Assembly: GCA_028699255.1 (NCBI GenBank)
Contig: JAQVUX010000006.1
Span: forward strand, 89,928-153,927
From: Candidatus Omnitrophota bacterium
GTDB taxonomy: Bacteria; Omnitrophota; Gorgyraeia; 2-01-FULL-45-10
Length of the DNA: 64,000 bases
Direction: 5' to 3'
Part shown: piece after piece, positions 26,970 through 57,600 of the stretch
Numbering within the stretch: position 1 is the first letter of the stretch
How the letters are laid out: each line of letters begins with the position of its first letter
Notes under the pieces: generated by a model
Database searches by the model: none
The model's input: only the letters and a program-made list of their open reading frames with translations
Told to the model about the DNA's origin: nothing
Translations under genes and position numbers: made by a program

Positions 26970-26978
26970 GGCGGTATA

Positions 26979-33341: not shown

Positions 33342-33537
33342 CCGTTTACATAATTCCCTCTCCAAGGCAACCTATAGCGATAATCTATTCAAGCCTGAAT
33401 GCAGGATTATGCCATTTTTAACCGCATAGCGGCCAATTAAAAAATGTTTTTAAAGGTAACAAAAAACACATTCATAACTATTTAAAACATAAAGAGTTAT
33501 GAATACATTAGTATTTAAAAAAGCCAGCCATTACCTA

Positions 33538-33565
33538 TTGACAACATACTATTGTATGATATAAT
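33538..33565 (+). promoter_or_regulatory. Consensus sigma70-type promoter TTGACA-16-TATAAT upstream of giant gene
   Basis: Hexamers read directly at 33538..33543 and 33560..33565; RBS AAGGGGT before ATG 33640. Confidence 0.5.
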
Positions 33566-33639
33566 ATATACGTAAGACGTTTAAAAAGGTAGATTTAACA
33601 GGATAGCGGTATTAGCTTTTAAAAAGGGGTAATCTCAAA

Positions 33640-36600
33640 ATGTTAGCTTGGCAAAGCAAGACATTTATTAAGGGCGGACTCGTCTCTAACGACGTGTCTG
33701 TTCGCGAGGAGCTCGGCAACGCCTCTCTCATCATGGACTGGAGAAGTCCGCACAATAAGTGGTGGATGAGGATAGTTGCCGTAACTCTGACCCTTTGCTT
33801 TATATACCAAGATGTGGTATGGGCGCAGGATGGACAACCCGTATGGTCTAAGCCGGCTAATGAGAAATGGGGACAGTCCCCTTCGGGGACAGTTCCCATT
33901 TCTTTAAATACTAATATAGCAATACCGAAAGACATAGCTACAACCAAAGAAGCATATAATGGTAGTAACAGTTCTTCCCCCAAGACCATCATTCAGATCC
34001 AGGACGCCCACGCATCTTTAGCCGCCCAGGAATCCATATCCTCGATACTCGACTCGTTAGTTACCAACTACGATCTTAAGCTCGTAGCTGTGGAAGGCTC
34101 ATCAGGCTACATCGATACCTCGATCTTAAAGACATTCCCCGACGAAGGAATCCGCAGGAACACCGCAGAATATCTTATGCAGAAAGGTAAGATGTCGGCC
34201 GGAGAGTTCTATTCGGTTACAAGTAACAAGAATATCGCTTTATACGGCATAGAAGACAAAGATTTATACAAAGCTAACGTTGAAGAGTTCAAGAAGATAT
34301 ACGAGGCTAATCAGTCTGTCCGGAAAGACATCACAGGTCTTATAAATACCCTCAAAGCCATAGAAGACAAGGTCTACTCCAAAGAGTTAAAAGCCCTCGA
34401 GGATAACTCCGTATTAAACACCAACGGCAAGGTATCTTTTACAGACAGATGGGCGTATATAAGCGCTCTTGCCTCAAAGGTCGGTATAGATATAAATGGA
34501 AAAATGTCCCAGTCCAAGGGGACAGTCCCCTTCGGGGACAGTCCCCTTTTTCCCAACCTTTCAAAACTCGTCGAATCTATAAAGCTTGAAAAAGAGATCT
34601 CCTTCGATAAGGCCAACAAAGAGCGCGATGCCTTAATCGACGTCTTAAGTAAATCGATAACTAAGACAGAATTGGAGAAGCTCGTATTAAACTCCCTCTC
34701 ATTCAAACAGGGCAAGATAACCCAGGGCGAATACTACGTATTCCTCCAGGGACTGGCCAATGACAACAACGTATCACCCTTAAAGTACAAGAACCTCATA
34801 AACTTCACCGACTACATCACCCTCTATGAGTCGATAGACTTACTCGAGATATTCGAAGAGGCTAAAGTATTGGAAGATGCCATCAAAGACAGGCTCTACA
34901 CTTCCCCCGACCAGAGGAAGTTACACGACCTATTGAAGTGCGCTAACTTTATCAAAGACATCTTCGATCTTAAACTTACCAACTCCGACTTCGAATACTT
35001 GGCCAAGAGCTTAAAGACATGGAATGCGGATACGATTGCCCAATTCATTGAGGAAACAGGTAACCGCGTAGGTTACACCTCCGGTAACCGCGTAGGTAAC
35101 CTACGCGGTTGTACTGGTGACGATGGTTACGACCTCGATAACATCTTCTCGAATCTGCCCATAGCCATACAATTCTACAATACCGCGGAAAGACGTAACA
35201 ACGTCATCCTGAATAACACCATATCCCGTATGAATAAAGAAGGCCAGACAGTAGCGGCCCTTATCACAGGCGGCTACCACACCAAAGGTATATCCGAGCT
35301 ACTAAAGCAGAAAGAGACCTCCTATTTAGTAATATTACCTAAGTTCGACGCCTCAAAGCCTGAAAGGCCCTACGTAGCTATACTGACCAATAAGAAAGAC
35401 AACTATGAAGAGCTATTGGAATCGGGTAAGTACCAGCTATTAACCGATAACTACTTAAAAGACGGCATCCAGGACCCCAAGAAGATAGAAGGCTTTATTA
35501 AAGAGATAGTGGTTGTATCCATAGGCCAGGCGGCCATAGAGCGTAAAGACATCGCCAGTGTCAAGAAGCTGTGGATCGAGAGCTATCGCAGGTCGTACGA
35601 GGCCCTTATGGAGAAGGGGATAGTAAAGAAACCATCTTCCGAACCTGGTGCGGCAGAAGGTTCCAGCGAAAAGTTTTCCAAACCAGGTTTGGGCAAAGGA
35701 AACCGTTTCTACAAACCTGGTTTGGAAAGCCAGGAACAAGGTTATGGCGACCAGCATATAGCGACGACGACGAACTTTAGTCCGGTTGCTCTCGAGAAAT
35801 TTATTCAACTTATAGACGATATAAATGCCATCCGGATTAGCGATGCTGTGGCGGTTGTAGAGCTGGGCGATACGCGCTGGACGATAGCGATATCAAGCGA
35901 TAACACGATAACGCGACGTGAACCAACGCCCGCTGAGCTACGAGGATTTAATTCGCAACTGAGAAAAATCGCGTCGCAACCCGCTTCTACCGAACATGTT
36001 CCATCCGCCGCGCAACGTGTCAAAATCCTTGAGGGCACGACACGGGACTTATTGATCGACGCTATCGTAGAAAGAATGCATGGCGTTTCCACTGAAGAGT
36101 CGTTCGACGACGCTGTCCGCGGGAAAACAGCCTATACGAATTTGACCGTAGACGGCCAAAGAGAGATACGGCAAGCGGTTATGAATAGATTTAAACCTAT
36201 CGAAACCGCCCAAAAAGTTACTGTCGTCTCGCGTATTCCCGAAGCGTTCATAACAAGAAACGCTCAAGCGAAGAAGAATAAAGAAGAGAGAAGAGGCAAG
36301 ATCGAGGTAATAGTAAAAGACGCCGGTCAAGACGGCATTACTATAACAAAAATCCTTTCTCAGCTCACCGCCCAAGGCGTTACCGTAAGCCGTTCTACCG
36401 TATTTAATGACCTGAAAGAATTAGCCGCAAAGAGCGACGCAGTGATCACGATTGAAAAAGCCAGCGGTAAAGCGAATATATACAGGATTAGACCTCAAGC
36501 TACTCCGGTGCCGGAAGCCGCACCTATAGAAACGCCGCAGGCTGTAGCGCCTGTAGCGGAAGTTACTCCTGCGCCTGCAGTCGAAGCCGCACCAGCTCCG

Positions 36601-39600
36601 GAAACTCCAGAGCTGTCCCCGGAAGAAATCAGCCAAGCGGTAGACGAAGGTTTAGCCAGGCTTACAAGGCAAAATGACGGATTTGAACATGCGCTTATAA
36701 GATCCAAATTTACCACAAACGCCGAAAACAAATTACTCGCGACAGTAGAAATTTTAGTGGATAGCCGCGGAGTGCCGCGCTACTTAGCGGATGAGAAAAA
36801 CACGATATCCGATGAAGAGAGAAATACGCTTACCGAGGTTGCCGTAACAGTCGACGATACGGGAAGAATAAATCCAGAGACCATTGAAGTCTCGTCCCCA
36901 GAGAAATCAAAATTATCAGACCAGGCAAAAACAACACTTCAGCAAATAACCGCTAAATATAACAAACAACTGCCGTCTTCATTGCGAATAATCGCAAAAA
37001 GAGCCGTTTCCGCCGTAACCCATTTTATGGAGAATGCGTGGAGCGCGGCGAAGGAACATTTAGAAAGCATCTCCCCTGAACAAAAAAGAGTATATCTTAT
37101 TGTATTTATCATGGGAATTGCGGGGGTAGTTTCGGCGCTTATGTTCACATATTTGGCGTGCATAGGTAATTTAAATATTTCGCCCGTTAGTCTGCGTACC
37201 ACTGAAGGCGGTATCAATCTGATAGCAGCATTAGGGATTTCGGCTATTATAAGGAAATCAGCCGTCTCGCGTATTCCCGAAGCGTTCATAACAAGAAACG
37301 CTCAAGCGAAGAAGAATAAAGAAGAGAGAAGAGGCAAGATCGAGGTAATAGTAAAAGACGCCGGTCAAGACGGCATTACTATAACAAAAATCCTTTCTCA
37401 GCTCACCGCCCAAGGCGTTACCGTAAGCCGTTCTACCGTATTTAATGACCTGAAAGAATTAGCCGCAAAGAGCGACGCAGTGATCACGATTGAAAAAGCC
37501 AGCGGTAAAGCGAATATATACAGGATTAGACCTCAAGCTACTCCGGTGCCGGAAGCCGCACCTATAGAAACGCCGCAGGCTGTAGCGCCTGTAGCGGAAG
37601 TTACTCCTGCGCCTGCAGTCGAAGCCGCACCAGCTCCGGAAACTCCAGAGCTGTCCCCGGAAGAAATCAGCCAAGCGGTAGACGAAGGTTTAGCCAGGCT
37701 TACAAGGCAAAATGACGGATTTGAACATGCGCTTATAAGATCCAAATTTACCACAAACGCCGAAAACAAATTACTCGCGACAGTAGAAATTTTAGTGGAT
37801 AGCCGCGGAGTGCCGCGCTACTTAGCGGATGAGAAAAATACGATATCCGATGAAGAGAGAAATACGCTTACCGAGGTTGCCGTAACAGTCGACGATACGG
37901 GAAGGATAAATCCAGAAAACATCGAAGTATTTCATGGGAAAGAATTATCGGACCAGGCAAAAACAACACTTCAGCAGATAATCGCTAAATATAACAAACA
38001 ACTGCCGTATTCATTGCGAATATTTGCAAAACGTGCGTGGAATGCGGCGAGAGAAAAGCTGGGATCCGTATTAAGCATACAAAAGATCTCCCCGGATTTC
38101 CTTGCCCGCACGATATCTTACACATTAGCTGGGTCTTTAATACTCGCACTTTTTGTATTCTGGCAACCGGCCGCTTTTACAGGATTTGTTCACAATGTTG
38201 AATGGTTCCTCGGAACCGTTGTAAGCAGTACCTCGCTGTCCTATCACGGAGTAAGCCTTTCTGCCGGCAAGATCATGCTGGCATTATCTATGTTCGAGCT
38301 TGTCGCGACTCCTATCACGCTCGGACTTAAAATAATGCTTAAGAGGGCGGGGATGGCTGAAGATGTGCCGGTGGTTGATGCCACTTCCACAGCAGATGAG
38401 ATCAATGCGGCGATGAAGGCGCGTTTTGGCTATACGGTAGATGAGCTTCAGGCGGCCATGGAAGCCCAAGCGCTTAAACGCGCCACCGGTGAGCAGGGGG
38501 AGGTAGCGCTTAAAAAGATACGCGCGCTGTTTGAAGGCTTCGGGCATGATAAGTGGCAGTTGCTCCGAACTTATAAATTACTCGAATCGGGATGGTTCGA
38601 CACGCTGGGTGTTCTCGCGGCGGCAAGCAGGCGCCAGCGTCTCGGCCCGGTACTTAATTTCATCAACAATATGATAAACCCGATCGAGCTTTTAAAGATA
38701 ATATACGGTTTTTATCCGGCATTCTATCTGGAAAAGATAAAGCGATCGTTCCAGTCCGGAGGGGCCGAGCTTTTACAACTTAACGAAAAGCAGGCAGAGC
38801 AGGCTATGCCCATGTTTGGGACCTCTGACACGAGAGAGCTTGTTCTCGATATATTTGCCCGCTCTGTAATGCCGCGTATAGGCAATACCAAGTCCGTTTC
38901 ATCTTATATGTGGACCGGCGGTTTGCAGTATGTTTCAGCCGTGTGGGCCGATTCCATATATATTAAAGGAACATTGCAATTCATAAAAGCGCGGCTTACG
39001 CTCGCGTTCGCAAGCAGAGTAGGCTCGATCCTCATACTTACTCCGCTATCCTGGATGTTCAATCTGAACGGTCAATGGCTCGCCGGCGCCGCTCAGAAAT
39101 TCTTTAGCGGGCAGATGGGCCTGCAGTTGCCGGTGCCAGGCGCTGTGCCGGGCGTAGCCAATCTCGCGTCGAACGAGAATTTCCTATTCGGTTTTATACC
39201 GGGCATAGCGAAAACCATGGCCCCGATAAATTACGCCGGAGTAATGGCGCGCGAATTCATCATTTCCGGCGCGGCAAAACAGCTTACCTTGGCCGCCGTC
39301 GCGGGAGCATTCTCTACTACGTTTGTTCTTCGGATATTTGCCGGCGCTCGAAGGCTGTACAGTGATTATAGACAAACAGGGAAGATAAATATAGCCAAAT
39401 ACATGACAACTGCGGCTATTGTTGCCATGGTTATGAGTATCGGAAAATCTACATGGGGTATGTGGTTGGTCAATGTCGAAATACCGATGGTATTAGGCCA
39501 GGCCGCAGTTGCCGACAGGGTTATGTTTGGGCAGGGCGGCGGCACATATTTACATGATACACTGGCCCTTGTAGAAGGCCATGAAGGCGCCATAGGTGTA

Positions 39601-42600
39601 GGTAATACGATTTTTGACAGGACGCTATCCATGCTTGGGATAGGCGCGCCTGTTGCGGAACAAGCGCCGGCGCCGGCTACTATACCGTCTGTGCCTCAGG
39701 CGGAAAAGGCAGAAGCCGCGAAAGTTATTGCGCCTACTGTTGAAAAACCTTTAGAGATCGCAAAGCCGGTTGTTGTTCCGGAAAAAGCGGCAGTCAAGTC
39801 CACTGTTGCTCAGGCACCAGCGCCTTTACGGGAAAAAGAATTGGCTCAGACGCCATCCGCGCCGATCACGGAAAAAGCAAAGCGCGTGACGGTTTTCAAA
39901 CCGGTCGCGGTTACTAAACCTGTCGAAGCTTTACCGCCGCGTGTAGAGTCGTCTGAGGCAAAAACCCGTGAAGCCGCCTTATCAGATAATAGATCTCGCG
40001 GCGCTCTCGCATACAAAACCGAGATGGCGGCCTACGATGCGGCAAATAACAACAAAGATTATAGCGGAGCCTTTGCTCACCTCGACAAATCCATAAATAT
40101 TATCGAGGCACTTATTAAAAATGGTAATAGCGACTTACCCGGCATGCTGGCGCAATTAAAAGCTACCCGGCAGGATCTTTTGCAAAGATACGCCTTCGGC
40201 GATCCGGATGGATATAAAAATACAATCGCGGCGTATATTGAAATAAACGCACGCTATGATAGCGATCTCAAAAAATATAATGCGGCGGCCAAGGCGGGGA
40301 ATGCCAAAGATGCGTTAAAATATGCGACTCTATGCGCGAGTGAAATCAGAGAGATGTTAGCCGCCGGAGCCGCCAAGCTTTATCCACAACTTGAGAGGGC
40401 GTCCAAGAAGTGGTCGGATATTGAGAATTATCAACGTACGAAATCCGCATCTCCTGTCGTAAAATCGCAAGAAACCGCAAAAGTTACAACTAAGGACGAG
40501 CTCGCTGAAAATGCCATCCAATACTGGGCGGAGTCTCAGATACTTCGCGGCAGGTATCTCGAGGCCATACAAAAAACAGCTAATCTTAAGGCAGAGTACG
40601 ATAATTACATTAATAAGTCCATTAAGTTGAGAGGCATTTCTCCGGTTATAGACGCGCGTCTGAAAACGCTCGCCGGTGAAATCGCGGCCTCGCAAAGGGC
40701 AGAGAAGAACGCTTTGAAGGCCATGAGCGCTTTAAAAGACGCCGCCGAGAAAAAGGAGGCGGATATTAAGAGTTTTCGGTATAAAAATCTTCTCAAAGCG
40801 TATAGCATAGCCAATGACCACTACGCAAAAGCGGCAGGCGACAGGGAACTTGCCCTCGAGTATCTCGAGGAGATGATAATCATAGCCGGGAAGATGGCGC
40901 AATTATATGATAAAAATGCCGATGTAAAAGAACTTCTGAAGCAATTACAGGCCCGCGTTCCGGTGAGATACCCTATTCTTGCCAATTCATATCTGAACGT
41001 TATCAGGCAACTCACATTTGCCAATAAAAATGGCAAGATTGATTCCCTAACTCTGCAGAAAGCGTCGTTCAAGCTCAACAAAGAGATATTGAAAGAGCTT
41101 CAAGCTATTAAGACCACTCCGAGATTTGTTCGGACCAGAGAAGAGCGGCTTTATGATGGCCGGGCGCTGGGAAATGAAAAAAGTGAATGGCCGCGTCGGG
41201 AGATCAAAGATATCAATGAAGAGATAAAAATAATCGAACAGTTTGTGGCAGATAATGAAGCGAAGTTAAGGGCGAAAGACCTGCAGTATAAGTTTTTGAG
41301 GGGTGAAAAGAGCTTTTCTGATTATAAAAAAGAAGCCGCCGCTATATTTTCCAAATTCGGATTTAAAATATCCATTCCAGCACGCGAAGCGGACGCGCGC
41401 TCCGCAATAATCGAAGACGCAATAGTAACAGAACAGATAGCCGCCTCGAGTGTCAGAAGCCAGCTTCAGGAGATATCGGAAGAGCTGGGAAGGCGGACAT
41501 TGACTCCGCAAAATAAAGGGTATGTAAGACGTGATAGTTTAAGGCAGGCGATACAAAGCAGGTTGGACGAGGTAAACGGGCGCATAAAATCTTTGCAGGT
41601 TGCGGAAAAGGCCGTGAAAGAAGGCAAGCCATTACCGAAAGGCTTGGATCTCCCCGTTATAGAACTTGAAGAGCCGAAAGCTGACATGGCTAAACTAAGG
41701 CCGCTACTTGTCGAGCCCACCGTAGAAATGCTGGGTATCCCACACGCGCCGGCTGAGCTGAAACCTTTCGTGGCAGATATTATAAAGCAGGGGCTCGGCA
41801 TTGATAATCCATCCGATAAGTCCATCGATATCCTGGCTCATCTCTTTAGCCGTTATTTTGAAACGCATTATTTTGTGCATGCGGATGAAAGAGCTCAATA
41901 TTTCAAGCTTATGACGGCGATCTTGCGAGAATTGAAGGCGCAGGGTTTCTTTGAGAGCCAGGAAGTATTATTACCCGGCGAAGAGATGTCGAGCATGTGG
42001 AGCGCGAATCTTTCGGGCCCTGTTTCCAACTCAGAAGTGCAATTATTAACTAAAACATTTCCTGAAAAACGAAGTGAGTTGAGCGTTATAAACCGTCTGG
42101 GGTTTGCCAGCAGTATGGCATGCCATATTATGCGAGTGCGGTATATCGATAACAGCGCTCCGGACAATCTTCTCAGCGACTTACAGGCTGTTCCAGAAGG
42201 CCAGATGGATAATTATGTAAAACTGTTAGTGTCGAACATATTGAAATTAAAACCCAGGATGGAAAGTGCTATAGGCATGTCGGTAAGCATAAGCAGTCTC
42301 GGCAGGACGGGTTGGGGATGCGTCATGAGCGCGGCCGTGTATTTATCCGCCGCCCGTAGCGTGAATCTATCGCCGGTCATAAATTCGGGCAAAGACCGCT
42401 TTGATGTTCGCGGCCTGGTTTTCCCGTCTTTTGGTATAGATGCGGATAGCGTCCCAAGCAGTTGGCTTAAAAAAGCCGTAGGCCCCGGCGGCTCTATAAG
42501 AGAGAACGCAGAGTTCTATGGGCCAGATAATGATAAGGAGCGTATTTTAATAGGCCCAACATTTGATAACGCCGATCTTAACATGATACCGGTGAGTATA

Positions 42601-45600
42601 ATATTAGGAAAGCGCGCCGAGCAAGGCGCCATAGAAACACTTACAAACTTATGGAATTTTAAGGGCATCTATAGGGTTGATGATAATGTGTCGGAAGCTA
42701 TAAGAATACGGGAAATATTATCTGTCTATCTGGAGTATATGGGCGAACCGAGTGACGCGGAGATTGCCGCAAGCCCTGAGCTAAGAAATGAATTCGCCGA
42801 GTGGGATAGGATAATCGCGCAATCCAACGATCCATATGTCAGGCAAAAAGAAATGTCGGCTAAAGACGAAGCGCGTCAGGAAATGCGCGATTCTATATTG
42901 CTCGGAAATGCTATGTACTGGTGGGAAAGGGCGAGGAAAGAAAGACATGATTTTTCCGTAGCGGAATTCAGAGAATTAATGAAGCAGGTGAAAGCGGACA
43001 GCGTGGATGCCATACAGATACTAAAATTAATACATGGCAAAGACTATCAGCCGGATTTCCACAGAGCGGCCGATATGGGCTGGCTGATATCGTATTCACT
43101 CCCGCGGCTTTTAGAATCGAAGGAATCGGCTGATAAAACAGTTCCTGCGCAAGGGCCGGTTTCCCCGCGAGGCATGAGCCGCATAGAGGCTTTTAACCTG
43201 CTTCTGGACGCGGATAAAGACGGTAATTTAAGAGATTTGACCGAGAAGTATCTGGCCAAAACCGGATCGTTGGTTAATTATGGCAAGCTTACCCCAACCG
43301 CCCTTCTTGACCCGCAGGTATGGGGGAAGATACAATTTTTAGCTTCTAATTATCTTGAAGGCAAAGAAGCGCCCTCTGCCGTAAAAAATTTCGCTGGTAT
43401 GGTCAAGGCCAGAATAAGGATGATCGACGCCGCCGAACGGCTGGGACAGACAAAAGATAAAGTCATATCAGTATACGAAGGTACGCGGGAAGAAGCGTTA
43501 AAGGCGTATATAAACAGTCAGGAGTCGGCGCACCGTAGGGTAATGGGCGCCAGGCCGGTAAGCGACGCCATGCGTAGGGCATGGGAGAAACGTTTTGCTT
43601 CCCAGTGGGACCTGTACCATACTATGAAGAAGGCCTATATTGAAACAAAAGCGTCCGAATATAAGAAAGACGCCGGTGTTTCTGATGTGCCAAAAGAGCT
43701 ATTCAGCATATGGGGCAGTGAATTCCCGGGTATGTATTGGGAAGGCAATCTTTCTTCCGAAGCTGAAAATTTTGAAAAGAAGGCAACGGAAAAACAGGTT
43801 GAAAAAGAAATTATTGTAAGGCCTCCTACGGAAGAAATAAAGAGTATTAAAACACCCGTTGCAAAGCCTGCCGCCCAGCCGGCATCAGAAAAAGGCGCGC
43901 AAACCATACCGGCCATTCCGTCGTTTGCCCGGATGCTTTTTAACGCGTTAATAGGCCAGCATCCCGCAAATATAGACTCTCTTGCGCCTAAAGATTATCC
44001 TGTTTGGGGCATATCTACGGCAGATAATCCTGAAAACCCGGAGCAGTATGAGGAATTAGGCGCGCCCATCGGCTCTAAGGACAGAGCTAATAAAGGTTAT
44101 CCGGATAAACAGATTATAACCCCATATGCCGCAGTCTTGGCACTTGACTGTGCTCCAAAGGAGGCGGTAAGGAATATAACCCAGATATTAAACAGGTACC
44201 CGCAGGCTATAGGTAAATATGGCCCGTATGATTCCATAGATCTTAAAAGCGGGGCGGTATCTAATACATATGTAGCTGATAACAAAGGCATGGAGTTTAT
44301 AACAATAGCGAATTATTTCAGCGGCGGAGCAGTACAAAAATATTTTTCCGGGAGTAGCATTGTTAAGCAGGCTCTGCCGCTTCTTAATGAGAATTTTAGC
44401 CGGATGAAGATGCCGGATGGATTATCGTTAGAAAAAAACATATCAAAAGAAGAGAAGGAAACCCTGCTTAAACTCGAAAAAGCGGCATGGGATTATTTTG
44501 CGGATAATTCCAACGCATCGACGAACTGGCTCCCGCCGAATAGGATAAATTCCGGAGAGTCAAAATCATACACTTCGATTACCAATATAGGGCTGTACCT
44601 CGCCGGCATAGTAGCCGCTGAAAAAAGAGGTTACATTACATCCGACGAGGCCAAAGACAGATTATCAAAAGCACTCGATGCTATAAGCAAATTGGATACA
44701 TGGAATGGGCTTTTTAGGAATTATTATGATTTGGGGACGCTCAAATCTTCTACGAAAAGCGATAGGCTGATATCACCTGTCGACAACGGATGGCTCGCCG
44801 CAGGCCTTATAGTTGCTGGTGAGGCGCATCCCGAATTAAAGGACAAAGCGCATGGCGTAGTGACCGGTATGCAATTCGGCCATCTTTATGATAAAAATGC
44901 CGGTAACCTTGTAAATAATTACGACGAAAATAGCGGCCCCGCATCTTCGCATTATGGGCTTATCTATACCGAAATAAGGCCTACCCTTATCATTGCCATA
45001 GGACTGGGAAAATTAAACAAAGATCCTTCGGTGCCGATAGTCCCCGAAACCGCATGGCATAGCACCGCAAGAACGCTCCCCGCCGATTGGGACTGGCAGG
45101 CTCAGCGGCCGGACGACTCATATTATTCGTATAAAGTAAACGTGAATGGAAAAGAAGAGACGGTTTGTTTCGTCCCGTCGTGGGGCGGCAGTATGTTTGA
45201 AGGATTGATGCCCAATCTATTTATCGATAATAAGATTTATTCGCCGAAAGGGTATGCGATACAGGATGCCGTGTATGTATTCCTGCATAAATATTTCGCG
45301 ACAGGCGCTTCCGCGCAAAAGGTTGAAACCCCGGTAACTCAACCGGTAAAAGTTGCTCCCGCGGAAAAGCCTGCCGTCGCCGTACCGAGTCCCGAGGCTA
45401 AAATACTGCCGATTGTTACCCGCGAACAAGCCGTATCTCAGGAATCATTAGTTTCAGGTGTGCCGCAAACGCCAGAGTCACCACTGGTGATACCAGGTTA
45501 TATAAGTGATGCCATAGCGGGGGCGAAACCCGGGAATACAGCCGATGAAGGTGTCGAAGCCGTTCTTAAGCTAAGAGAGCTTCTAAGCATATTGGCGGAC

Positions 45601-48600
45601 GAAAAAGTATTCTCGATAGCCGATGAAGGCGGCGCTTTTGATAATGCGCTGATAAGTTACGAGAAAAAGAGATCCGCGGAATTGAATAAACTGTTTAAAG
45701 GCAATGACAAATTAGCGAAGAGCGTTTTGCGGGAAGAATTGAAGAACTTTGCCGTTCAATACCGGGGAGGTGTAATAAATTCTACCGCCAATACCTTCTT
45801 CTTCGATCTCGGCATATCGGATCCCGGGGTTGTGGAGAAGATCATCCGAGCGGATAAATATATAGATATGGTGGGTAAAAGCAATAAGCACCCGCTTAGC
45901 GCTCCTGAGGTAGGGAACTGGAGGAAAGAGTTCCTCGAGAGGGTATATCTTACAGAGGCCGAGAGAAAGCTGAATGAGGATCCGAAACGTGAGCTTCTGA
46001 TAAAACGTATGGGCGAAAGAAAAGACCTTGATGATTGGCGCGGCAGTAAATTATCCGGGAAAGCCGGTGAAGCGTATCGGTACATTTCGGATCTTTTCAG
46101 GTTAATTGCTTATCTTGAGACAGCGGCCATAGATGTTTCCGAAGATATAAAGAAGGAGGAGAAGGTGCAAGAAGGCCGTCCTGTCGATGATTATGCCGCG
46201 TTAAATACGCTTTTAGAGGCATATAGGGCGACAGGAAAAGCGATCCCGGCTATTGAGGTATTAGCGGCTAAGACACAGAGTGCCGATTTCGCATTCTGGA
46301 GAAGCGCGAGGGATCATATAGAAGAGCTCGAACAACTAAAAAACACACTTCTTACAGAACAGGATTTCGCGAAACGGCCGGATGAAATAACCCGTATTTT
46401 AGAGAAAGCCAAAGATCTTCGCTCTTATGCCAAAAAAGATCCGGTTCGCGGTCTTTTAATACAACAATTTGTCGATTTAGCCGATCCCGAAAACCCCGCA
46501 AAAGCGATAACCGCTGATGATAAGAAAACGTATGTCAATGAATCGCCTTCTAATATGGCATTTGCCAAAGTTAACGCATTACTCCTCGGTATGGATCAGG
46601 TGATCAAGATGATGAAAAAAAACCGTGCGGAAGAATTAAAAACAATGAAGGAATTTTCGGATACAATGTTCGAAGAGCGCATTCGCATAGCGGAAGAGTT
46701 GAGAGCGCATGAGTTAAAAGCCTCGGAGTTCAATGAAGACTGGCAAAAAAATAAGACAGGGTGGGCAGGCAGGGTCTGGTCCAGGATGTTTGGGAGTAGC
46801 GCCGAATCCCGGGCCATAGAGGCTGAGAGAAAACGGTCTGACGATTTTAGGACAGCCCTGTATGATTATTCCGTATTGTACAACTGTTATTTATCGAGGC
46901 AGAAGACGCCGTTTGAAACAGCGATCGCCGAAGCGCAGTTCCTATATGAAAAACTTACAAAAGAACGGACGAGGGAAAATATAGCCGACCTTGAATGGTA
47001 CGAAGCCGCGAGGGCGGCCAAGAAAGAATTATTTTATAAAACATACCTGCAGATGGTTTCGAAATCTGTCGGTCGTGAGTTAAAAGGCGGAGATTTGAGT
47101 TTTATGTTCAAAGAGATAACGCTCGATCCTTATATGCGCAGGCAAAAAGATAATTATAAGCAAAAACTTGGCAACGATTATCCGGAGAACGTCAAAGAGC
47201 AGATGGGCGAGCGTTTCGTATCGGACAAGATAGCCGAATATGTAAAGTTGGAAGCGCTTGTGATGGAGCTTGAGGCAAATCTCAGAAAAAACCAGGAGAT
47301 ACCTGAATATGCCCCGCAGTTCAGCCGCGGTATTACTACGGCGACGTATATGGAATATGATGAAAAGAATATGAGTTATGATGAAAAAGCCCGGAATATT
47401 CGCGAGTGGTTTAAGGATGCCTCGCTGTGCCAGCGATTTGCCAAAAAATACCTTGGGTACTATTTCGGTTACTATACGCTCCAACATGTGGTCAGGACGA
47501 TGCGTGAAGATGACAGGGCGACCCCTGTTTTATTTGAGAAACCAGACCGCGCCGAAGCGAATTTTAAATCCAAATATTCTACCGATCTCGCATATAAAAA
47601 TTATGGTCCGCGGCTTAATAATATGCATGACACCGGATACGCTCTCAGGGTTACTTTCGACGCGGTAGATGATAACAGGTATGATCTCTTATTGAAGGAG
47701 CTGGACAGAATAAACGGCGGGAAAGCGTCTGGTGAAATCAGGATGGTTCGTGATGAAGCAGTTGAACGTCTTGGTAGTTTCCACAATGAGTTGGCTAAAT
47801 TGCTCCTGCGTTTTTACAATAGCAAACCGCGCGAATCGGTTGAACGGGATGTCACGGAGCTTGAGAAAGAAGCTCTTGCGGGAATAATCGAAAATCTTAC
47901 GATAAATCTTGAAACCCGTAATAAAGAATATGCAGATGCGAATAAAAAGATTTGGGAGAACGCGGCGGAGAGACAGGAGCTTATTAAGGAAGTGCGCCGT
48001 AATAGGAAGCGCGGATACGATAGTCTTGAGAGGTTTGACCGCACAAATACCGTGGGTAGGCTATCCATAGAGATGAATGATGCGTTGAAGGTGGCCAATC
48101 GGGTGATGCCGCCGGACGCTAAAATATCGATAAATCAGGAACGGATCGATTATTTCGTGACACAGTGCATGGAGAGCGGTATGACGCCTATGGAACAGGT
48201 GGATATCGCTTTTATAAAACCGCAAGCTTTACGAAAAATATACGTTGAGATATTTGGTAAAGAGCCGACCCCGCATCAATGGGAGGACATAAGGTTCTAT
48301 GTTGAATCAAAAATGGACCTTGATGGCTGGACTGAAGATAATGTCAGGGTATGCATAGTATATGGGGAGTATATCAGGGAAATATATAAGACCCTACCGG
48401 GCGCGCGTCAACCGAATGACGGCGAAACGAAGATGCTGGTCGAGCATATGCTAAAGAACGGAATCCTTCCTATTAATACTAATGTCCGCGAGATGAACAT
48501 TGAGCCGAATCGTATCACAGTCAAGGCGCTTATCGAAAAACGGCTTGCACCGGAGCGTGTTATAAAACTGACCGCAGATATATTGACTACGCTGGAACGC

Positions 48601-51600
48601 AAAGAATATGGAAAGCTTAGCGGCGAAGAAGAGTTTATCAATCAGGTTTTCTATCTTATGGGTTATGTACTGGACACAAATATAGTGGAGAAGCCCGAGG
48701 ATGCAAAACCTTCGTATAATAAGGAAGCTTTGGTAAAGAATATCGGCGATAGGCTTAAAGGTCTAAATATAGAAGGATCCGGCTATACCACCCAGGAGCT
48801 TGCCGGTAAGATAGTTGATAATATTATAAATAGAGGACTTCAAGCGGATAATTTTCCTGCGCTCGTCGATCGCCTTTTACAGATGAAAACGCGTATAAAT
48901 AAAGTGGACGATATTATCAGAGATAAAAAAACGAAGGCTAAGAGTGAGGGGAGAGAATTCGAGTTTAACGAAGAACAGCGCGCCGATATAGTTCCGATAA
49001 GCGAAAACGACCTGAACATCCTTGCGGTTCTGGATGATAGCCGGCAGAATAGAAGTGACGGTATAGGCATAGCGGAGATAGCCGGATTCAAGCGCGATTC
49101 TTCTGCCTGGAAACGACTGAAGGAGGACGTTAAAAAACCTATAGATGCGTTATGGGGCGGTTTGCTTAATAGTGAAGCCGAATCCCGCTATAACGCGATC
49201 CGCGGAAAAATAATAGACGCGGCATTCGCAAGATATAAAGGTAAGTACACCAAAGAGTATCTGGGTAGTATGGTCGACAGGCTGATCAGGGCCGGATTAT
49301 ATACCCCGGAAGGCGAATTGACCGAAGTAGCAAAAATAGCCGGACTGCAAAAGGCAGTCCTTTCTATGCGGGGCGTAGAACCATCCAGTGATACCGAAGA
49401 GCTTAAGAGGCAATTAGACAGGATCAGGGATAACGCGCCGGAAGATATTCTCGAAAAGGCCGAACTGGCGGCATGGCAAAAAACAGCTCAGCTTTTCGGT
49501 GTTTCCGATATTGCCGCTACCAAGGTTGGCATAAAAGAGCAGTTAGCGGCCCGTCTTTTAACGCTTGAGAAAAATATTAAAGAAGCGGCGGAGCTTGCGG
49601 GTTTACGCGCTCTCGCGACCGAAGAATTTGGTATAAATAATCCTGGCCGGAATATCATAGAAGCTACAGATCAGATTCAGCGTTCCGCCCGAGAAAATAA
49701 AGTGCCGTTCGTAAATGAATCGGAATATCTGGTGGACCTGCGCGCCAAGGCCGGCGCTCTTGGCGTAACGACCAGGGCCGGAGCTTCCAATGAAAAAGAA
49801 TTACTGAATAAGGCTATAGCCGAAGCGGAAGAAAAACTACCCCGGACATTAAAATATTATGCCGATAACGCCTTCCTGCGCTATTTCGCCGCGGAGATCG
49901 GGGTAAGCGCAAAATCCGGCGATGAAACATCTGTAAGAAAAGAAGCCGCCGACGAAGCCCGCGCAAAAGCTGAGGTAATGTTGAATGAGGCAAAATTAGA
50001 AGGACTTAAAACGGAAGCGCGGCTACTCGGGATCACGTCAGCCGATTCTGATGCGGAAGGACTTCAGGCGCAGATCGATGCCGAGGCAAGATCGATCAAA
50101 ACAAAGGAATCCGAGGTATTGGATAAAGTCAAGACGGGACTTTCTGTTGACAGTACGGCCATGTTTAAATCGATGGCGAAAATAGGTATTATTAGCTCAG
50201 TTGTTACGCTGTCACTTTCGCTTTTAGGGTACGTTATCAGAAATCTTCGTAAGTGGCTGAATCTGTTACGCGCGAAACCTCAGGCGGCAGAACAGCCGCA
50301 AGAGGCCGCGCGTGCGGCTGTTCCAGCTCCGCAGGCTGTACCGGTTTCGCCGGGCGCGCCAATCGAGCCGCAAATCGCGCCGACCGCACCTGTTCCTGCG
50401 ACCATAGTTGACAACACAAAAAATACGGAGCGCAAATTCTGGTCAAAAGGACTCTGGGACATGTCTTTCATGATGATGAAGCTGAGCGTACAAATCTCTG
50501 TTGCGTATTCACTGCTCTTCAAAGGGCCGGTGTCGCCTTTTGCAGGGTGGGCTTTCAATTTCGGCGCCCTCGGAACATTTTTAAAGTCAGTATGGGCATA
50601 TTTCTTTACTTCAGGGATAATTGATTTTGACAGTTTCGGCGTGTTTTTGCAGTCAGCAAGCCACGATTTACAAGCATTGGCTCCATTTGCCGCGGTAGGC
50701 CTGGCAATAGGAGTGGTAACTCTTATAATGAATCAGGTTGTAAAATACGGACGGCAATCAGTCGGTATAAGGATTTTAAAAGAAAAACCGGGATTTGCGG
50801 GCACTCTGCACTTAATCGCTAAGTCCGCATTTCTTGCCCCCGTGCTTGCGTTTGCCAGCTACTTTTTCATATCAAAAGGCAATCTAATCGCGACCTCCGG
50901 CGCCGGAAACGCTATATGGTTATTCAGCTCTCCGGTTATCGTGTTAGGGGCTATTTTCGCCATAATCTATGTAAGTAATAAACTTTTGATAAAGGCTTTC
51001 CCGCGCTCTTCGACACTTAGGTCTATTTCGGTACTCGGGATCACTGTGGCAGGTATAGCAACGATCGCTATGTTTCTGCCGGGTGGATTGTTCTCGAATT
51101 TTGCCAATGTATTCACCTTCGGCGTATATGCTTATATAATAGGTAAGTTCAGTTTCAGGACGTTCGAATTTATTTCGTCAGCCTTACAGATACCCGCCCG
51201 TTTCGTATGGGATCGGGAAGGCGAAAAAGCCTGGAGCAAAGAGGCATTATGGGACGGGTGGAAACATTTTAAAGGATCGTTGAACAATTTTGTGTTCGAA
51301 GGTGTTCTATTCTCCACCACGATGGTTTATGTTTTTGTTACGCAGAACATGTTCACAAGTGTAGGATGGCTCGTGGCCCTTGGCGCGGCATTGTATTACT
51401 ACTCCAATAATAGCGCCGCGTCTCTTACGGCCGGGCAGGTATTTTATATAGGCAAGAATTTTGTAAAGACGACGTCATTTGCTCTATCTATATATTTCTT
51501 CGCGCAGATAGGTATCGCTCTGAGCGGAGGCGCGGCAGTCGCGAGCATATCGCAAAATCTGGGCTATATCGTTCTTATTACAGTGATCAATATATTTGTC

Positions 51601-54600
51601 GATACTCTGCGCAGAAGTATTTTTGGTAAAGATTACATAGGCACGCCAAAAGAAGCGGTAATAAGCAAAACCGGTAAGGGTGATGCGGAAAACACCGTTG
51701 TCCAGGTACAGAACACCCGCAATGAATACGGCGAAGCGGTTATTTCCTCGCTCGGCGTCCTTTTCAGAAGTTTTGCGAATAATCGTTCGGCGGTTGGATC
51801 AGCCATATTTACAAGTGATACGGCGCAAGGCCCGCTTAAGACGATGGAGCTTATACTTGCCAGTATGGAGCAGTTACGACATGGCGAAAGTAGCGCTTTT
51901 ATAGCCGGCAGAAACAACCTGCCCGGGGTGACCGGTCCCGCCCATGGCAAAAAATGGGGCGGGTATCAGCAGTTCTTCGTCGCCCTTTATTTCGGTTTTA
52001 TGCATCATATAGCATATACAGGCAGAGAAAATGACCAGAGGGACCAGATATTTGTGTATGAAAAAGGCGGTAAAAAGTTCTTCGGAGAACACCTGAAGAA
52101 TTCCAGAAGGACCTACGGGGATGATAGCGTAAGAGATTCTAACGATAATATAAGGGAAGTGCTTATCGAAGAAGAGGATTGTGATTTCTATATAAAATTA
52201 AAAGAGGGAGATAATAAGTTTGTTTATGAAGAGATAGTCGTCGTGGATAATAATAACCCTTCGCAAAACCTTACCGGCGTAGTATTTGATACGCGACATT
52301 ATCTGATCGATTGCGAAAATAAAGATAAGATATTGCGTGTAGTCGCGGACGGAATATTTGAGTTTAAAAAAGATGTGGAAAACTACAATGGTAAACCCGG
52401 CGCATGGGTGTTGGTAGCGAAAACCGATCAGATAAAATTAACAGAAGATGGTTATCTGATAGATCCGGAAAATGCGGTCAAAGATATAAAAGATTTTTAC
52501 GGGAATATTTTGCCGAAACGAGTAAGACCGGCTATAGTTCAGCAGGTCACAGGTAAAGACATAAATGGCAACAGGCGCGTTCTGCGGCTTGAAAAGACCG
52601 GAGATATTATCGATCCGATAACCGGAAAGAAGGCTGGAACCATATTCGATAAGTCGGCTCAAAAAATGTATTACGGTGTGGACGCAAATTATAATCGCAC
52701 AAATCTGCTCATGACATCAAAGTTATTCAGGAAAGGCGAGTGGGAATACGTTGACGACACAACTAAGGATGCTGTAAGGGATACAACAACAGGCATAATA
52801 TATAAAAAAGGGCCATATACCAATCTTGCTATGGATAAGAACACCGGCGCTATGTTTTTGAAATTTGCAGGCAAGACGCTTGATTTTGGCGACGGCAGGT
52901 TGATACCTCTGGAAAGAGTGAGGGCGTTTAGTCCGGAATCCGTTAATCCGCTTGTCGATAATATTATAAAACGCCGGGGCGAATTCCTGATCCATGGTGA
53001 TAATCTTGTAACCGATAATAACGGGCAACCGGTAAAGGTTAAGGATTTCTGGGGAGAAGATGTGCTGATATCGCTGGATAATGCTTATGTTGACAGTCAT
53101 GGTAATCTTATTCATTCCAATGTAACGGAATTACTCGCGGTAAAAGAAGCGTGGGAGATAGATCCTTATACCGGTGATGCGGTGGTTAAGGGGAGCGGGT
53201 TCAGGGGAGACGGCCATATCCTGGCGGCGAAAAATAAATGGGTTGCGGATAAAGACGGGAAATTATATGCCAGAGGTATTACTCAAAGCGAGGCCGATTA
53301 TGCCGCAAAGACAGGCGTGTATGGACTTTTGGATAAACTTAATCTGGGCCTGACAGGGGTTGAGAATAATTGGTATATAGAGGATCCGGAACATCGCCTG
53401 CCGCTTGCGGGATATCCTGTCCAGAGAGTAAGGAACGGCTGGGTTGTTAACGAGGGCAAAGGATTTTCACTCGACGCATCAGGTAATGTAGTGTACACAC
53501 CAAATTGGCTTAGGGTCGGATGGCTGTCGGACGAGACTTTCGGCGAATTACCCGCCTTAACAATACCTGCAAGTAACGTAAAATCGATATCGAAGGACAT
53601 TACAAAGATAAATTACGCGAAAGACAACCGCCTAGAACATATAGAAATTCTCGCAGATTTTGGCAGTTATTACAAGGATGATAAAGGTAGTTATTATAAA
53701 CGCCGCAAAGTTGGATATTTAGATGAAATAAGCGGTGAGCCGGTATGGTATGGTGAAGCTCCCCCCGGAACGGTTCGTTTAGATTTAAAAGGCGGCTTAT
53801 GGGTGGACACGCCCGATTCATTGGATTTGACCGCATGGGCCGGCCGCGGTTATGAAATAGGTATAGCGCAGAATGGCAACCTGGTGGCTATTAAAGCCCT
53901 CGCCGATAAGGCAGAATACGAGATCGACCGCGTTACGGGCAATGCGCGTATCACCTCCGGCGCGAACAAGGGACAGCAATACAGGGTCGGCACATTCTTA
54001 AGAGTTGGGGAATACGGTTCTTACAGATTTATCCTTTCGCTGGAACCCCGCAAGACACAGCTTCCTTACGATATTTATCCGGACATTCAAGGCATAGGCG
54101 CCGATGGACTTATTTCCTCCGACCATCTTATGGCAAATCCAACGCTTATGGAGTATCTCGTCCAGGCGCCTCAAAGGCCGCGGGCTATAGACCAGACGGA
54201 TAGTGAAAACGAAATAATGGATAATGATACCGCGGAAAAATTGAGTGTAGCGGTCAGAAATCGGGAAGGCTTCGATCCGGATAAACTTTATTACACTATA
54301 TTCGGCATTCTGCAAAGAGAGCTGTACATGACGAATGCCGGTGAGTCGGAATACGCTTATCTGGGCGGCACGGCGCATGATATGCTTAACTATATAGCCG
54401 CGATGAATAAGTGGAGCTTTGAAGAATCCTCCGCATACGGGAAAATGTTCGATGTTCTCGGTATATACGCCCTGAACGTTATATTTACGGAAGCCATACC
54501 GCCGTTCGCGCGCTGTCACGATCACTGGGAGGCGTTGAAGGCATATGCTCTGCTTCTGCCCGGTTTCTGGCGCGATAAAGAGAGGTTTGTCGGAGACGAA

Positions 54601-57600
54601 TACTTGTCCCCGAACATAGTAAAGATGGCTCAGGTACAAGGATGGATGCCCGGAGACATAACGCTCTTTTATTACGAGATATCGGCATTGAAGGTTATAT
54701 TGGACGCGCTCAGCGGTTTGTGGCCGAAAGCAAGCCGCTCCATAGATGATCTGCATGAGAAACATCCGTTCTCGGCCGGTTCAGGTAAGGCGATGTCGAT
54801 CATATTGTACGGCGCTTTTGGAACGCTCGCCTTCGCTGTATGGCTTATGGCCCTCGGCGTAGTCAGTGTATTGGTGCCGGGCTTGCGCGAAGCCCAGGAC
54901 GCATGGCGCTCGAACCTGCTTTTTGGTATCGTTATGTTAGTCATGATAGAAATATCGAAAGCTGTGATATCCGGCATAAAGAGATTATTTGAACAGGAGC
55001 GCAATGATTATATCGTCCGGCTGTTTGGCAAAGATATAGTTATAAGCAAGGCGCTTGTAAATCTTATCTTCACGGCTTTCTTTGTAGCACTGACGATCGA
55101 TGTCGGATATTTAGGGTTGAGTCCGCTGATTTCCAAGACGATAGCGCCTAATATAGCGAGCGGGAAGAGCGTCGTAGGCGATGCGGCCGCATATTTTGCC
55201 ATAGCATTCGGCATTACAAATGCATTGATTTATTTTTGGTCCATGTCCGTCACGGCTTTAAAAAATAACAAAGCCATCCGTCGCGCCCCGATTTTATATC
55301 AACCCGGGAAAGATAAAGCATATAGCTGGGCCAAGTCCGTAACGCGGTATTTGATAATTCCGGCGATTTTGGCCTCCGCTATGTTTGCCATAGGACATTT
55401 TTTCCCTGACCATTCTCCACTGGCGCTAATTCGGGACCAATTTGTACATCTGAAATACGTACCTTCCGCGAGATTCGTACCGGCTCTCGTAAATATGATT
55501 TTCTATAATATAGTACCTTATATCTTGCCGTTCTACCTTATAATGGGAAACCTGTCATCCATAGCCGCGAGATATCTGGAAAAGAAATTCGGATGGCAGT
55601 TACTCTATGTGAATACAGATATCTATGATGTGTCTTACAAAGCGCAATGGGAAACATTAAATTCTACAAACCTGCTAATGGTATGGCTTTTCTACCAACC
55701 GATGGCATTCTTTAAATCACTCTTTGTGGTAGGCGTAAAAAGACTGGAGCCGGCCTGGGTAACAGCGGCAAAATTAGCTCTCGAATATTCCGGAGGATAT
55801 AAGCTCTGGGAGTCGTGGACCGGCAAAGATTTCAAAGTAAACAAACAGATGCTGTTTGCGGTCATACCGGCTGTGATATTTGCTTGTTTTACATGGAAGA
55901 CCGATTCATGGTTCGGCTATACGATGTATGGTATCTGGCTGGCGTATATAATCTGGATATCCGGTACGCAAAAGACGCCCACAGCATTAATATTGCCGGT
56001 AGTCTTTTCATTGACACTGCTTTTGGCGACCGCTGTCATGGGACTCGATTCCTCGATAGTCTTAATGGGATTCCCAATCTATATATGGTCGTTCCTCTTC
56101 GCCCCGTATAAAAACTGGACGACCGGCATGTTCGGAGGGTCGCCTCATTATAGCACTAACTCAATGGTGGAAGCCACGCGCCAGATCAGGGTGTGGGAGC
56201 AGAGATACCTGTTAGGCATGGGTAAGCCGGTTGAAGATAGCGAGGCCGTAAAGAAAATAATCGGATTAGATAAGTTCTTCAGGGATGGCAAGAACGAGCC
56301 TACAATGCTTAACCAGAGAGATAAGTTACGACTATTGCTGTTCCATCTTACAAATATAAACCTTAATATAAATCCGATATTTGAGCAGTATATAGATAAG
56401 GCGCTTGAAGCCCGCCGGCCGGAGGAAGAGGCGCGGTTGAGAACCAAAGGATTTATAGTAGAATCCCGCAGATGGCCGAGATTCCAGGAGTTCGATAAAT
56501 CGCGCGAGAGGGCTTTTGCGATATTGGATGAGTTGCGTGGCAACGCGGCTCTAAGAACGCAGTACGGCAATGAAAAACTGGAACAGCTTATTAATGAAGA
56601 AAAGAACCGCTGGATATTGCGTGACGCTGTAAATAAGGCGATCATCCGCCGCGCGCATGAATTGGCCGGGATAAAACGTTTACGGGAAAAAGATTGGGAT
56701 ACGCTTTCCGTCCTGACGCGTTTGGAAATATTGCTGGAATTATTGAAATCAAAAGATATTGATGTGCGATCGGCCGCGGATAACGCGCTGACAACGCTGG
56801 GCGCCGCGGATAATAGAAATGTTGCCGAAACCACAGCGCTTATGAATGCGCTCGCCGCAATAATAAATCGCATGGGGCCCAGGGCTTACAATATTACGGA
56901 TTGGGAAAAACTTCGCCGCTCCGAGCAATCCGGTTTTATTAATTCTGTGCTTAAGTATTTTTCAATTACGGGAGCACGCGCCAAATATATTCGTACTTTA
57001 TCAAAACCATTCCGAAAGTCCACCGCTCCGGCGACGTCGCCGGTAGTTATGAAGGGCGGCGTAGAGGGCGGCAGATATGAGATCGTCACGGCAGATATAA
57101 TAGACGGCGCTATACAGAACTATAATGGTGTCGGATATGAAGATACAGATACAAAATTAAGGCAGGATCTGAATAATGCCATAAAGCGGATTTTTACGCT
57201 TGATGGATTTTCTGAAGAAGCAAAAACTAAAATAGCGGCAAAGATTATGAGCCTTTTAGGCGATCAAGCCTCGATAAACGCATTATTACAAAATAAGAAA
57301 CTTAGGGTGGTCGAAGGTAACGATCGTCTTATGCATTTTACGGAAAGCGCCGATACGATAACGCTGGATATAGACGCGCTACTTCATAATAACGACCTGT
57401 TATTCATGGAATTGGTCCACGAACTCTTGCACGCTAAACTCGCGGCTACCCAGACAAGGGCGGGTCCCGCGGCGGATCTCGCTACGCGTATTCAGGAAGA
57501 GATAGAAGTTACCACACAGGAAGTAGAGTTATTCCTCGCGTTCCCCAAAGATGCTCAAGACAGGATCCTCGCGGCATTGGCCGCCGACAACGACCTCGAC

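Follow-up and report, generated by a model that had tools for sequence, protein, structure and literature searches.

The stretch of DNA analysed in this work (the window, 64,000 nt in length, from contig JAQVUX010000006.1 of a Candidatus Omnitrophota bacterium, assembly GCA_028699255.1) contains two adjacent, paralogous giant genes, gene 1 and gene 2, the first of which holds a long in-frame tandem duplication. Two direct copies of the unit, starting at 36225 and 37263 with a spacing of 1038 nt, were obtained in a repeat search of the region 34-41 kb, both inside a single uninterrupted open reading frame (ORF) whose codons begin at 36226 and not at 36225. In gene 2 the unit recurs at the equivalent position, where a third copy starts at 63958 and continues past the window edge, so that at least three copies of this cassette were counted, two in tandem in gene 1 and one in the adjacent paralogue. 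The in-frame duplication, with direct copies at 36225-37262 and 37263-~38040, had been claimed in a preliminary description of this DNA and was borne out; whether gene 2 carries the unit had been raised there as a question, and the third copy and the identical head upstream of it are additions to that description. Features are listed in Table 1.

Table 1. Features of the two giant genes and of the duplicated unit (positions in the window).
Feature	Coordinates	Strand	Basis or remark
Gene 1, giant ORF of 9,145 amino acids (aa) of an Omnitrophota metagenome-assembled genome (MAG)	33640..61077	+	ORF list and translation
Signal-peptide-like N-terminus (MDWRSPHNKWWMRIVAVTLTLCFIYQDVVWA, followed by QDG)	33733..33825	+	putative Sec signal, judged by the n/h/c-region pattern
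Conserved N-terminal 'head' domain region	33991..36224	+	identical to gene 2, 61724-63957
Unit 1 of the tandem duplication	36225..37262	+	aa 863-1208; codons from 36226
Basic arm, copy 1 (VSRIPEAFITRNAQA)	36226-36270	+	sequence
Winged-helix module, copy 1 (KKNKEERRGKIEV...GKANIYRIRP)	36271..36495	+	AlphaFold 2 (AF2), Foldseek, weak hidden Markov model (HMM) matches
Pro/Ala/Glu/Val-rich linker, copy 1, 46 aa (RPQATPVPEAAP...ETPELSPEE)	36490..36627	+	composition; AF2 predicted local distance difference test (pLDDT) <50, without secondary structure
Small predicted alpha/beta domain, copy 1	36616..36900	+	low-confidence single-sequence AF2 secondary structure only (helix and several strands)
Helical segment, unit 1	36898..37074	+	DNA similarity of the units fades inside, at ...RIIAKRA
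Membrane hairpin of unit 1	37084..37251	+	hydropathy; unique sequence 'B1' with repeat copies on both flanks
Unit 2, shared part of the second copy	37263..38050	+	winged helix 37309-37533, linker 37528-37665, alpha/beta domain, start of helical segment
Two hydrophobic segments after unit 2	38098-38193 and 38251-38340	+	aa 1487-1518 and 1538-1567; hydropathy
Gene 2, 5' part, paralogous giant gene	61310..64000	+	TTG start; continues past the window edge
Start of copy 3, in gene 2	63958..64000	+	43 nt identical to 36225-36267 and 37263-37305

The repeated unit and the genes that carry it

Identity between the two copies of gene 1 varied along the unit. Unit positions 1-576 were 100% identical (ungapped comparison and BLASTN), and a perfect repeat of 576 nt cannot arise by chance; a chance repeat was rejected on these grounds. 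Five mismatches appeared up to unit position 661 (positions 577, 643, 655, 657, and 661), four of them synonymous in frame, followed by a small divergent patch with a 6-nt gap, after which identity was 91% up to unit position 775 (36911-37004 vs. 37943-38036). Overall, 751 of 775 positions matched between unit 1 and unit 2 (97%), and DNA similarity was absent beyond ~38050. Past this point a weak protein match of 16 residues was still found (WSAAKEHLESISPEQK vs. WNAAREKLGSVLSIQK, z = 2.5), displaced by a 39-nt indel (AKRA[VSAVTHFMENA]WSAAKEHL vs. AKRAWNAAREKL). The spacing of the copies was 1038 nt, and 1032 nt past the indel, both multiples of 3. The in-frame tandem repeat of 1,038 bp proposed beforehand, described there as near-identical for ~690 bp and then divergent, is shared over its 5' two-thirds but is not a clean one, as identity decays from 100% to nothing and the transmembrane parts are without detectable similarity. 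The peptide quoted with that proposal, SRIPEAF...KANIYRI, was present in both copies by translation.

Each copy opens with a basic arm and a putative winged-helix module, with a net charge of +7 over the first 90 aa of the unit, and continues with a linker made up of 12 P, 11 A, 8 E, and 5 V in 46 aa; the linker occurred in both copies, in agreement with the Pro/Ala linker of the preliminary description. For the predicted alpha/beta part that follows, nothing was retrieved in Pfam, NCBIfam or PDB searches. The helical segment, which we describe as an amphipathic helix, leads in unit 1 to a strong hydrophobic helix (37084-37173, aa 1149-1178, Kyte-Doolittle (KD) value of 2.5) and to a weak second one (37207-37251, GGINLIAALGISAII, KD 2.0 over 15 residues), the latter aligning with the stronger last transmembrane helix of the protein (GINLIAALGISAII vs. 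GVIIIAALGIAAVI). A pair of transmembrane helices had been expected in unit 1: membrane segments were indeed found there, but the second helix is only weak. No similarity was detectable between the hydrophobic pair after unit 2 and the hairpin of unit 1.

The product of gene 1 likely starts at 33733 (MDWRSPHNKWW...), and an N-terminal motif HQD[IV][IV]WAQ[DG]G was kept in its homologues. The 862-residue N-terminal part had 58 homologues, virtually all of them from Candidatus Omnitrophica/Omnitrophota and one labelled Vogelbacteria; most were 'partial' proteins cut at contig ends, and the head domain had no match in Pfam, NCBIfam or PDB. Conserved motifs of this domain (window 33900-35700, aa ~100-690) were IQDAH[AS]S, VEGSSGY, and ITGGYH[TS]KG, which may resemble the GTxH...E...GxxH pattern of the Tiki/TraB/ChaN superfamily. 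Two of the homologues, P0010 and P0011 (1,457 and 1,373 aa, respectively), shared both the N-terminal head and a C-terminal domain with gene 1 (aa 8684-8860, window ~59690-60220), including a common ending (...PI[DN]Y..EIE.YR.A......AA), whilst their middle part was a metallophosphatase without transmembrane segments. As both ends are held in common with the gene 1 protein, the family seems to consist of conserved end-caps placed around a variable, sometimes enormous insert.

When the whole 9,145-aa protein was searched against Pfam, only Glycoamylase and DUF3131 (aa 3454-3749) and Glyco_transf_5, a starch-synthase catalytic domain (aa ~8069-8226), were obtained, and a crude hydropathy scan gave ~20-24 hydrophobic segments. 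Neighbouring proteins in the window corresponded exactly to NCBI entries MDD3906083.1, MDD3906095.1, and MDD3906110.1, on one Candidatus Omnitrophica MAG contig of 154,011 nt; the exact gene 1 product, tried with three start codons, was absent from the protein collection. The 33 kb upstream of gene 1 contained an RND efflux operon, ROK-family, TPR, and ParA-like genes, transporters, and an IS200-like transposase; type II secretion or pilus genes were absent from these 33 kb, and the downstream flank is gene 2.

Similarity between the two giant genes was not limited to the cassette. Gene 1 and gene 2 were identical over the 2,277 nt that precede copies 1 and 3 (33991-36224 = 61724-63957), and BLASTN of the head regions gave 99.87% identity over 2,286 nt, with all three mismatches at the left edge (33984-33990). 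Taken up to the window edge, the first ~2.3 kb of the adjacent genes were 100% identical (33991-36267 vs. 61724-64000), an identity to which the assembly may contribute. Near its start, gene 2 showed an extra insertion of ~87 nt (61588-61714 vs. 33942-33981) and a different start codon region. The protein P0001, annotated as partial (925 aa), is the gene 2 product, being identical over the 897 residues visible in the window; it was the only database protein holding part of the module, and it runs 28 residues further before the contig ends.

The winged-helix module and its relatives

A structural model of the module was built with AF2 from an alignment of three sequences, the module itself and those of two homologues (P0002 and P0003). 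The model presented a mean pLDDT of 75.4 and a predicted template modelling score (pTM) of 0.62, with helices at residues 2-21, 25-34, and 41-54, a bridge at 23-24, and strands at 57-64 and 68-75. This is the order alpha1-beta1-alpha2-alpha3-beta2-beta3 of a winged helix-turn-helix (wHTH), with the beta-hairpin wing behind the recognition helix. In a Foldseek comparison with PDB, almost all of the top 50 matches were winged-helix DNA-binding domains (Fur, Zur, PerR, PadR, BlaI, the RPC39 winged helix, and ArgR), with query TM-scores (TMq) of 0.62-0.69, a root-mean-square deviation of 2.2-2.9 A over 67-75 columns and a probability of 1.0, the best E-value being only 4e-3. Single-sequence AF2 of the whole unit (pLDDT 51) was too poor for use.

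Profile searches agreed with the model in the kind of domain matched and in register. FUR and HTH_11 were weakly matched by all three members of the module family and HTH_12 by two of the three, the relatives (E = 1.1e-4); Arg_repressor, PadR, HTH_DeoR, PaaX, and Penicillinase_R were each weakly matched by one member. The module profile searched against PDB sequences matched ArgR (5cj9) across the helix-turn-helix with E = 0.0024, and a match to ArgR of NCBIfam was obtained with an E-value of 0.021, at 14.4 bits against a cut-off of 200. The C-terminal arginine-binding and hexamerisation domain of ArgR was absent behind the winged helix in Pfam searches, its place being taken by the Pro/Ala linker and an unrelated alpha/beta segment. 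All these results taken together suggest, with moderate confidence, that a winged helix is formed by the ~80 residues at the N-terminus of the unit, as had been proposed from the peptide alone, whereas membership of any named wHTH family is not supported.

The two homologues used for the model carry the module in the same place. P0002 and P0003, which were 62% identical in the head domain, showed a module 25-29% identical to that of gene 1 directly after the head, recognised by eye and then with phmmer. Since the same module follows the same conserved N-terminal domain, the winged helix is native to the head of one subfamily rather than an intruder. Behind the head and the winged helix, these two proteins continue with a helical region, then a Pro/Glu/Ala linker and then a SecA DEAD-like domain, and no transmembrane segment is predicted between them; this order would be in conflict with the signal-peptide-like N-terminus, if the ATPase is functional. 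Further relatives were not obtained. The 346-aa unit had none in a word-indexed search of 5.8 billion proteins, nor in GTDB genome contigs or JGI metagenome contigs, and full phmmer against 1.84 billion representatives returned only P0001, from the same genome, and low-complexity matches to the linker. A profile of the three known modules found no new relatives, and neither the 9,145-aa protein nor the remaining 55 N-terminal homologues contained additional diverged copies when searched with the module HMM.

Assembly, copy number, and origin of the duplication

The ends of contigs were informative about the copies. At the window-equivalent position 64084-64086 the source contig breaks off after 127-129 nt of copy 3, a length that equals one vertex of a k = 127 de Bruijn graph at the point where the head and B1 paths merge. 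A Logan contig of SRR22315503, 100% identical to window positions 22309-33732, covers 30 nt (k-1 for k = 31) of the sequence that gene 1 and gene 2 have in common and stops there. The two contig ends independently show that these sequences are multi-copy in the sample. It was also observed that the Logan contig begins inside the repeated part of the TPR gene. As the ends fall at k-mer lengths, the window very probably comes from a short-read k = 127 de Bruijn assembly, so copy number, assignment to one gene or the other, and 'perfect' identity are not secure. The tandem arrangement itself is robust, because any path through the unique B1 sequence must read copy, B1, copy.

We considered whether the assembler could have walked a repeat loop or mis-joined the paths of gene 1 and gene 2, so that there would really be one cassette per gene. 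The contig end at the k = 127 vertex length, the presence of perfect repeats of 576 and 2,277 nt on one short-read contig, and the absence of the exact 9,145-aa product from the protein collection all speak for such an artefact. Four features of the sequence oppose it: B1 (~37040-37262) is unique, grading out of the copy on its left and abutting a sharp copy start on its right, the junction stays in the reading frame and resembles another transmembrane-hairpin/domain junction of the same protein, and the first mismatches between copies are mostly synonymous, as in real coding paralogues. On balance we judge an artefact unlikely. The junction in question, where the hairpin of unit 1 (GINLIAALGISAIIRKSAV) passes into unit 2 (SRIPEAFITRNA), was collinear with the last hairpin and the start of the C-terminal domain (GVIIIAALGIAAVIKIKKAVISSKITVGIPPSAITTRKA), with a local score of 99 vs. 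36 +/- 6 for shuffled sequences, a score inflated by hydrophobic composition; the aligned stretch enters 'IPxxxITxR'. By this alignment, a hairpin followed by this motif looks like a native arrangement and not like a random fusion.

The reading that we hold to be probable is that of a modular cassette in the gene of a giant multi-pass membrane protein, present in at least three copies and homogenised in its 5' part. The cassette would comprise a basic arm with an ArgR/Fur-like winged helix, a linker of ~45 residues, an alpha/beta domain, an amphipathic helix, and a membrane hairpin. A recent date for the duplication as a whole would not fit the 3' third, in which the copies are no longer recognisably alike: a gradient of identity from 100% over 99% and 91% to nothing, with two indels, points to an older duplication or a mosaic of paralogues whose 5' part was later homogenised. 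The 5' two-thirds and the 2.3-kb head would have been kept identical or nearly so by gene conversion or unequal homologous recombination among the copies, and the identical head in gene 2 indicates that such exchange acts between both genes too. Because its length is a multiple of 3 nt and its membrane passes are apparently even in number, a unit added or removed by recombination would leave the reading frame and the downstream topology as they are, and the cassette could be easily duplicated. Foreign origin was rejected, GC content and skews being unremarkable across 33-40 kb.

A different origin, a single very recent tandem duplication or replication slippage giving a contingency-type repeat of 1,038 bp with rapidly varying copy number, was regarded as very improbable. 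It would account for the period being a multiple of 3 and for the identity of the 5' 576 nt, but it would leave all 1,038 nt identical, whereas the last ~260 nt could not be aligned and indels of 6 and 39 nt were present; moreover, there were two copies only, and no related strain or sequence showing variation turned up in the collections searched for the unit. A simple recent duplication of the entire unit was rejected in view of the identity gradient and the indels. Units of 1 kb change in number by homologous recombination and not by slippage, and slippage was rejected because of this length; the preliminary proposal that slippage could vary the number of units did not hold, the ~1-kb size implying unequal recombination or gene conversion instead. 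As the cassette also heads the adjacent giant gene, the relevant process would be concerted evolution among three copies.

Several observations weigh against the cassette reading. The alignment behind the AF2 models was shallow, with three sequences, and two models out of five were of low quality (pLDDT 49); single-sequence AF2 of the whole unit gave a strand where the alignment-based model has helix 1, and no profile match of the module reached its curated cut-off (FUR 18.5 bits, cut-off 23.1; Arg_repressor 16.5, cut-off 27; HTH_11 15.1, cut-off 25). The transmembrane parts of units 1 and 2 are not demonstrably homologous, so that a mosaic origin through recombination of paralogues is as possible as an old duplication followed by divergence, and the even number of membrane passes rests on the weak second helix. 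Perfect identity between copies may come from the same graph edge being written twice, in which case the true copies could differ by a few single-nucleotide polymorphisms, and neither the number of times the loop is traversed nor the gene that holds it (1 or 2) is established. Finally, the signal-peptide-like N-terminus is conserved and no transmembrane segment precedes unit 1 by hydropathy; by standard rules copy 1 would lie outside the cytoplasm, which argues against DNA binding at least for this copy.

Membrane side, other repeats, and comparison with known systems

In the cassette reading, the winged helix would serve as a binding head on a tether, with the linker keeping it at a distance from the membrane. 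A nucleic-acid-binding role at the cytoplasmic face comes close to an even chance in our estimate and was ranked slightly above a protein-binding role of an exported module. About 10 K/R residues were counted in the ~30 residues behind the hairpin of unit 1, and a strongly basic segment in this place should be cytoplasmic by the positive-inside rule. The net charge of +7 of the module, with its basic N-terminal arm, points in the same direction, as does the lack of a transmembrane segment between the winged helix and the SecA DEAD ATPase domain in P0002 and P0003.

The alternative, an exported (periplasmic or surface) module that binds proteins or ligands and not nucleic acids, fits the preliminary suggestion of a protein-interaction module and is a tentative but serious possibility. 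Winged helices serve protein binding in many systems. The conserved start, with its VWA-Q site and no transmembrane segment up to copy 1, is what would be expected for export; the domains of Omnitrophota giant proteins are for the most part predicted to lie outside the cell (bioRxiv 10.1101/2023.11.21.568195), and architectures with a signal peptide and transmembrane segments make up 39% of a recent catalogue (bioRxiv 10.64898/2026.06.07.730766). However, localisations based on transmembrane segments are at times unreliable or implausible according to West-Roberts et al. (bioRxiv 10.1101/2023.11.21.568195). Export is also at odds with the strongly basic segment behind the hairpin, which places it in the cytoplasm, with the closest sequence matches, all of DNA-binding HTH types (ArgR, DeoR, and HTH_11), and with the relatives that fuse the module, with no transmembrane segment between, to a SecA DEAD ATPase domain needing cytoplasmic ATP.

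Should the strong helix be the only one of unit 1 to cross the membrane, two identical copies would lie on opposite sides of it; counting hydrophobic segments as far as the starch-synthase domain (~20) gave too uncertain a number for placing the winged helix. A more far-reaching idea, which we consider rather unlikely, is that the identical ArgR-like heads on two adjacent giant proteins of an ultra-small, probably host-dependent bacterium are membrane-tethered nucleic-acid-binding sites whose number is tuned by recombination of a frame- and topology-neutral cassette. Such tethered heads could act, for example, in autoregulation of the giant genes, in anchoring of the chromosome at the insertion site or in capture of foreign DNA.

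Other repeats were observed in the window. A palindromic 13-mer (GGGGACAGTCCCC) occurred in adjacent pairs with a period of 16 nt, at two sites per giant gene and within coding sequence (33869-33897, 34518-34546, 61515-61543, and 62251-62279), with 14 matches vs. 0.02 expected by chance. The site at 34518 corresponded to an in-frame insertion of 16 residues (GKMSQSKGTVPFGDSP) in a well-conserved domain and was absent from all nine aligned homologues; as putative element insertions, these sites are reminiscent of in-frame palindromic elements such as the Rickettsia palindromic elements (RPEs). The TPR gene (19711-22452, 913 aa) contained a direct repeat of at least 300 nt and 98% identity (20984-21283 vs. 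21866-22165), with a spacing of 882 nt (7 x 126 nt) atop a diverged 126-nt periodicity, and it would be a second case of recent in-frame block duplication in the window. Two direct repeats of 54 nt, 96% identical and 151 nt apart (14965-15018 and 15116-15169), occupied a stretch poor in genes, shortly downstream of a tRNA gene (14837-14910) and adjoining the start of a minus-strand ORF (15168-15647). A perfect 11-nt tandem repeat (CCCGGAATAGG x 3.1; 2116-2149) lay directly after the IS200-like (Y1 transposase) gene (1431-2105).

Annotations cover little of the giant Omnitrophota genes, and the present locus bears on the question of how such genes are built up and diversify. It offers a candidate example of a self-contained cassette, made of a binding head, a linker, and a membrane hairpin, that may be copied with no disturbance of the frame, as well as one of probable sequence homogenisation between neighbouring giant genes. 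It also adds a previously unannotated putative winged-helix module in the conserved head of a subfamily, whose relatives fuse it to a SecA-like ATPase. Short-read assemblies of giant genes break or loop exactly at such cassettes, which calls for caution with repeat counts.

The module shares with the winged helices of Fur, PadR, BlaI, and the N-terminal part of ArgR the fold order alpha1-(beta1)-alpha2-alpha3-beta2-beta3 (Foldseek TMq 0.62-0.69), and with ArgR the pattern T..[ED]L...L...G..V[ST]..T[VI]..D[IL]KEL over helix 2, the turn, and helix 3 (alignment with 5cj9 and 2p5k). It differs from them in sequence scores that stay below the cut-offs, in the lack of an effector or oligomerisation domain, in being membrane-embedded, and in the Pro/Ala linker that follows; its DNA binding is putative. 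An analogy to the cassette is offered by ToxR and CadC, membrane-tethered regulators in which a winged helix, a linker, and a membrane span are found in one polypeptide. These are small bitopic proteins with periplasmic sensor domains, and their winged helix, of the OmpR type, is at the extreme N-terminus, whereas that of the cassette is ArgR/Fur-like, internal, situated behind a signal-like start, duplicated, and part of a 9-kAA (thousand amino acids) multi-enzyme protein. Alpha C/Rib of group B Streptococcus and enterococcal Esp, surface proteins whose repeat number changes by recombination, present, like the cassette, long in-frame and DNA-identical units in a large envelope-associated protein, between which recombination would keep the frame; in contrast with them, the cassette has two copies only, shares only the 5' two-thirds of the unit (775 of 1,038 nt alignable), and brings membrane segments of its own in each unit.

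Another frame of comparison is that of the published Omnitrophota giants, described as multi-enzyme proteins with a signal peptide and transmembrane segments or with the latter only, and with frequent repeated domains (bioRxiv 10.1101/2023.11.21.568195; 10.64898/2026.06.07.730766). A text search of these preprints gave no mention of a winged-helix head module, and neither describes near-identical heads on two adjacent giant genes. The length cut-off was 30 kAA in West-Roberts et al. 2023 (bioRxiv 10.1101/2023.11.21.568195) and 10 kAA in Nielsen and Lui 2026 (bioRxiv 10.64898/2026.06.07.730766), and in the catalogue of the latter a Pfam domain was repeated in 65% of the proteins and strict nucleotide tandems occurred in 17% of long genes. 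With 9,145 aa, gene 1 falls below both cut-offs (10,000 and 30,000 aa) and, unlike the published giants, is preceded by 33 kb in which type II secretion or pilus genes are absent. It resembles them in phylum, in a very long ORF with a signal-like start, many transmembrane helices, and Pro/Ala-rich linkers, in scattered sugar-metabolism domains that include PF08323, the top family of the sugar module of the preprints, in domains repeated within one polypeptide, and in homologues truncated at contig ends. The finding adds detail to the current picture of Omnitrophota giant proteins and leaves it unchanged, the protein being of a known kind, modular and repeat-rich.

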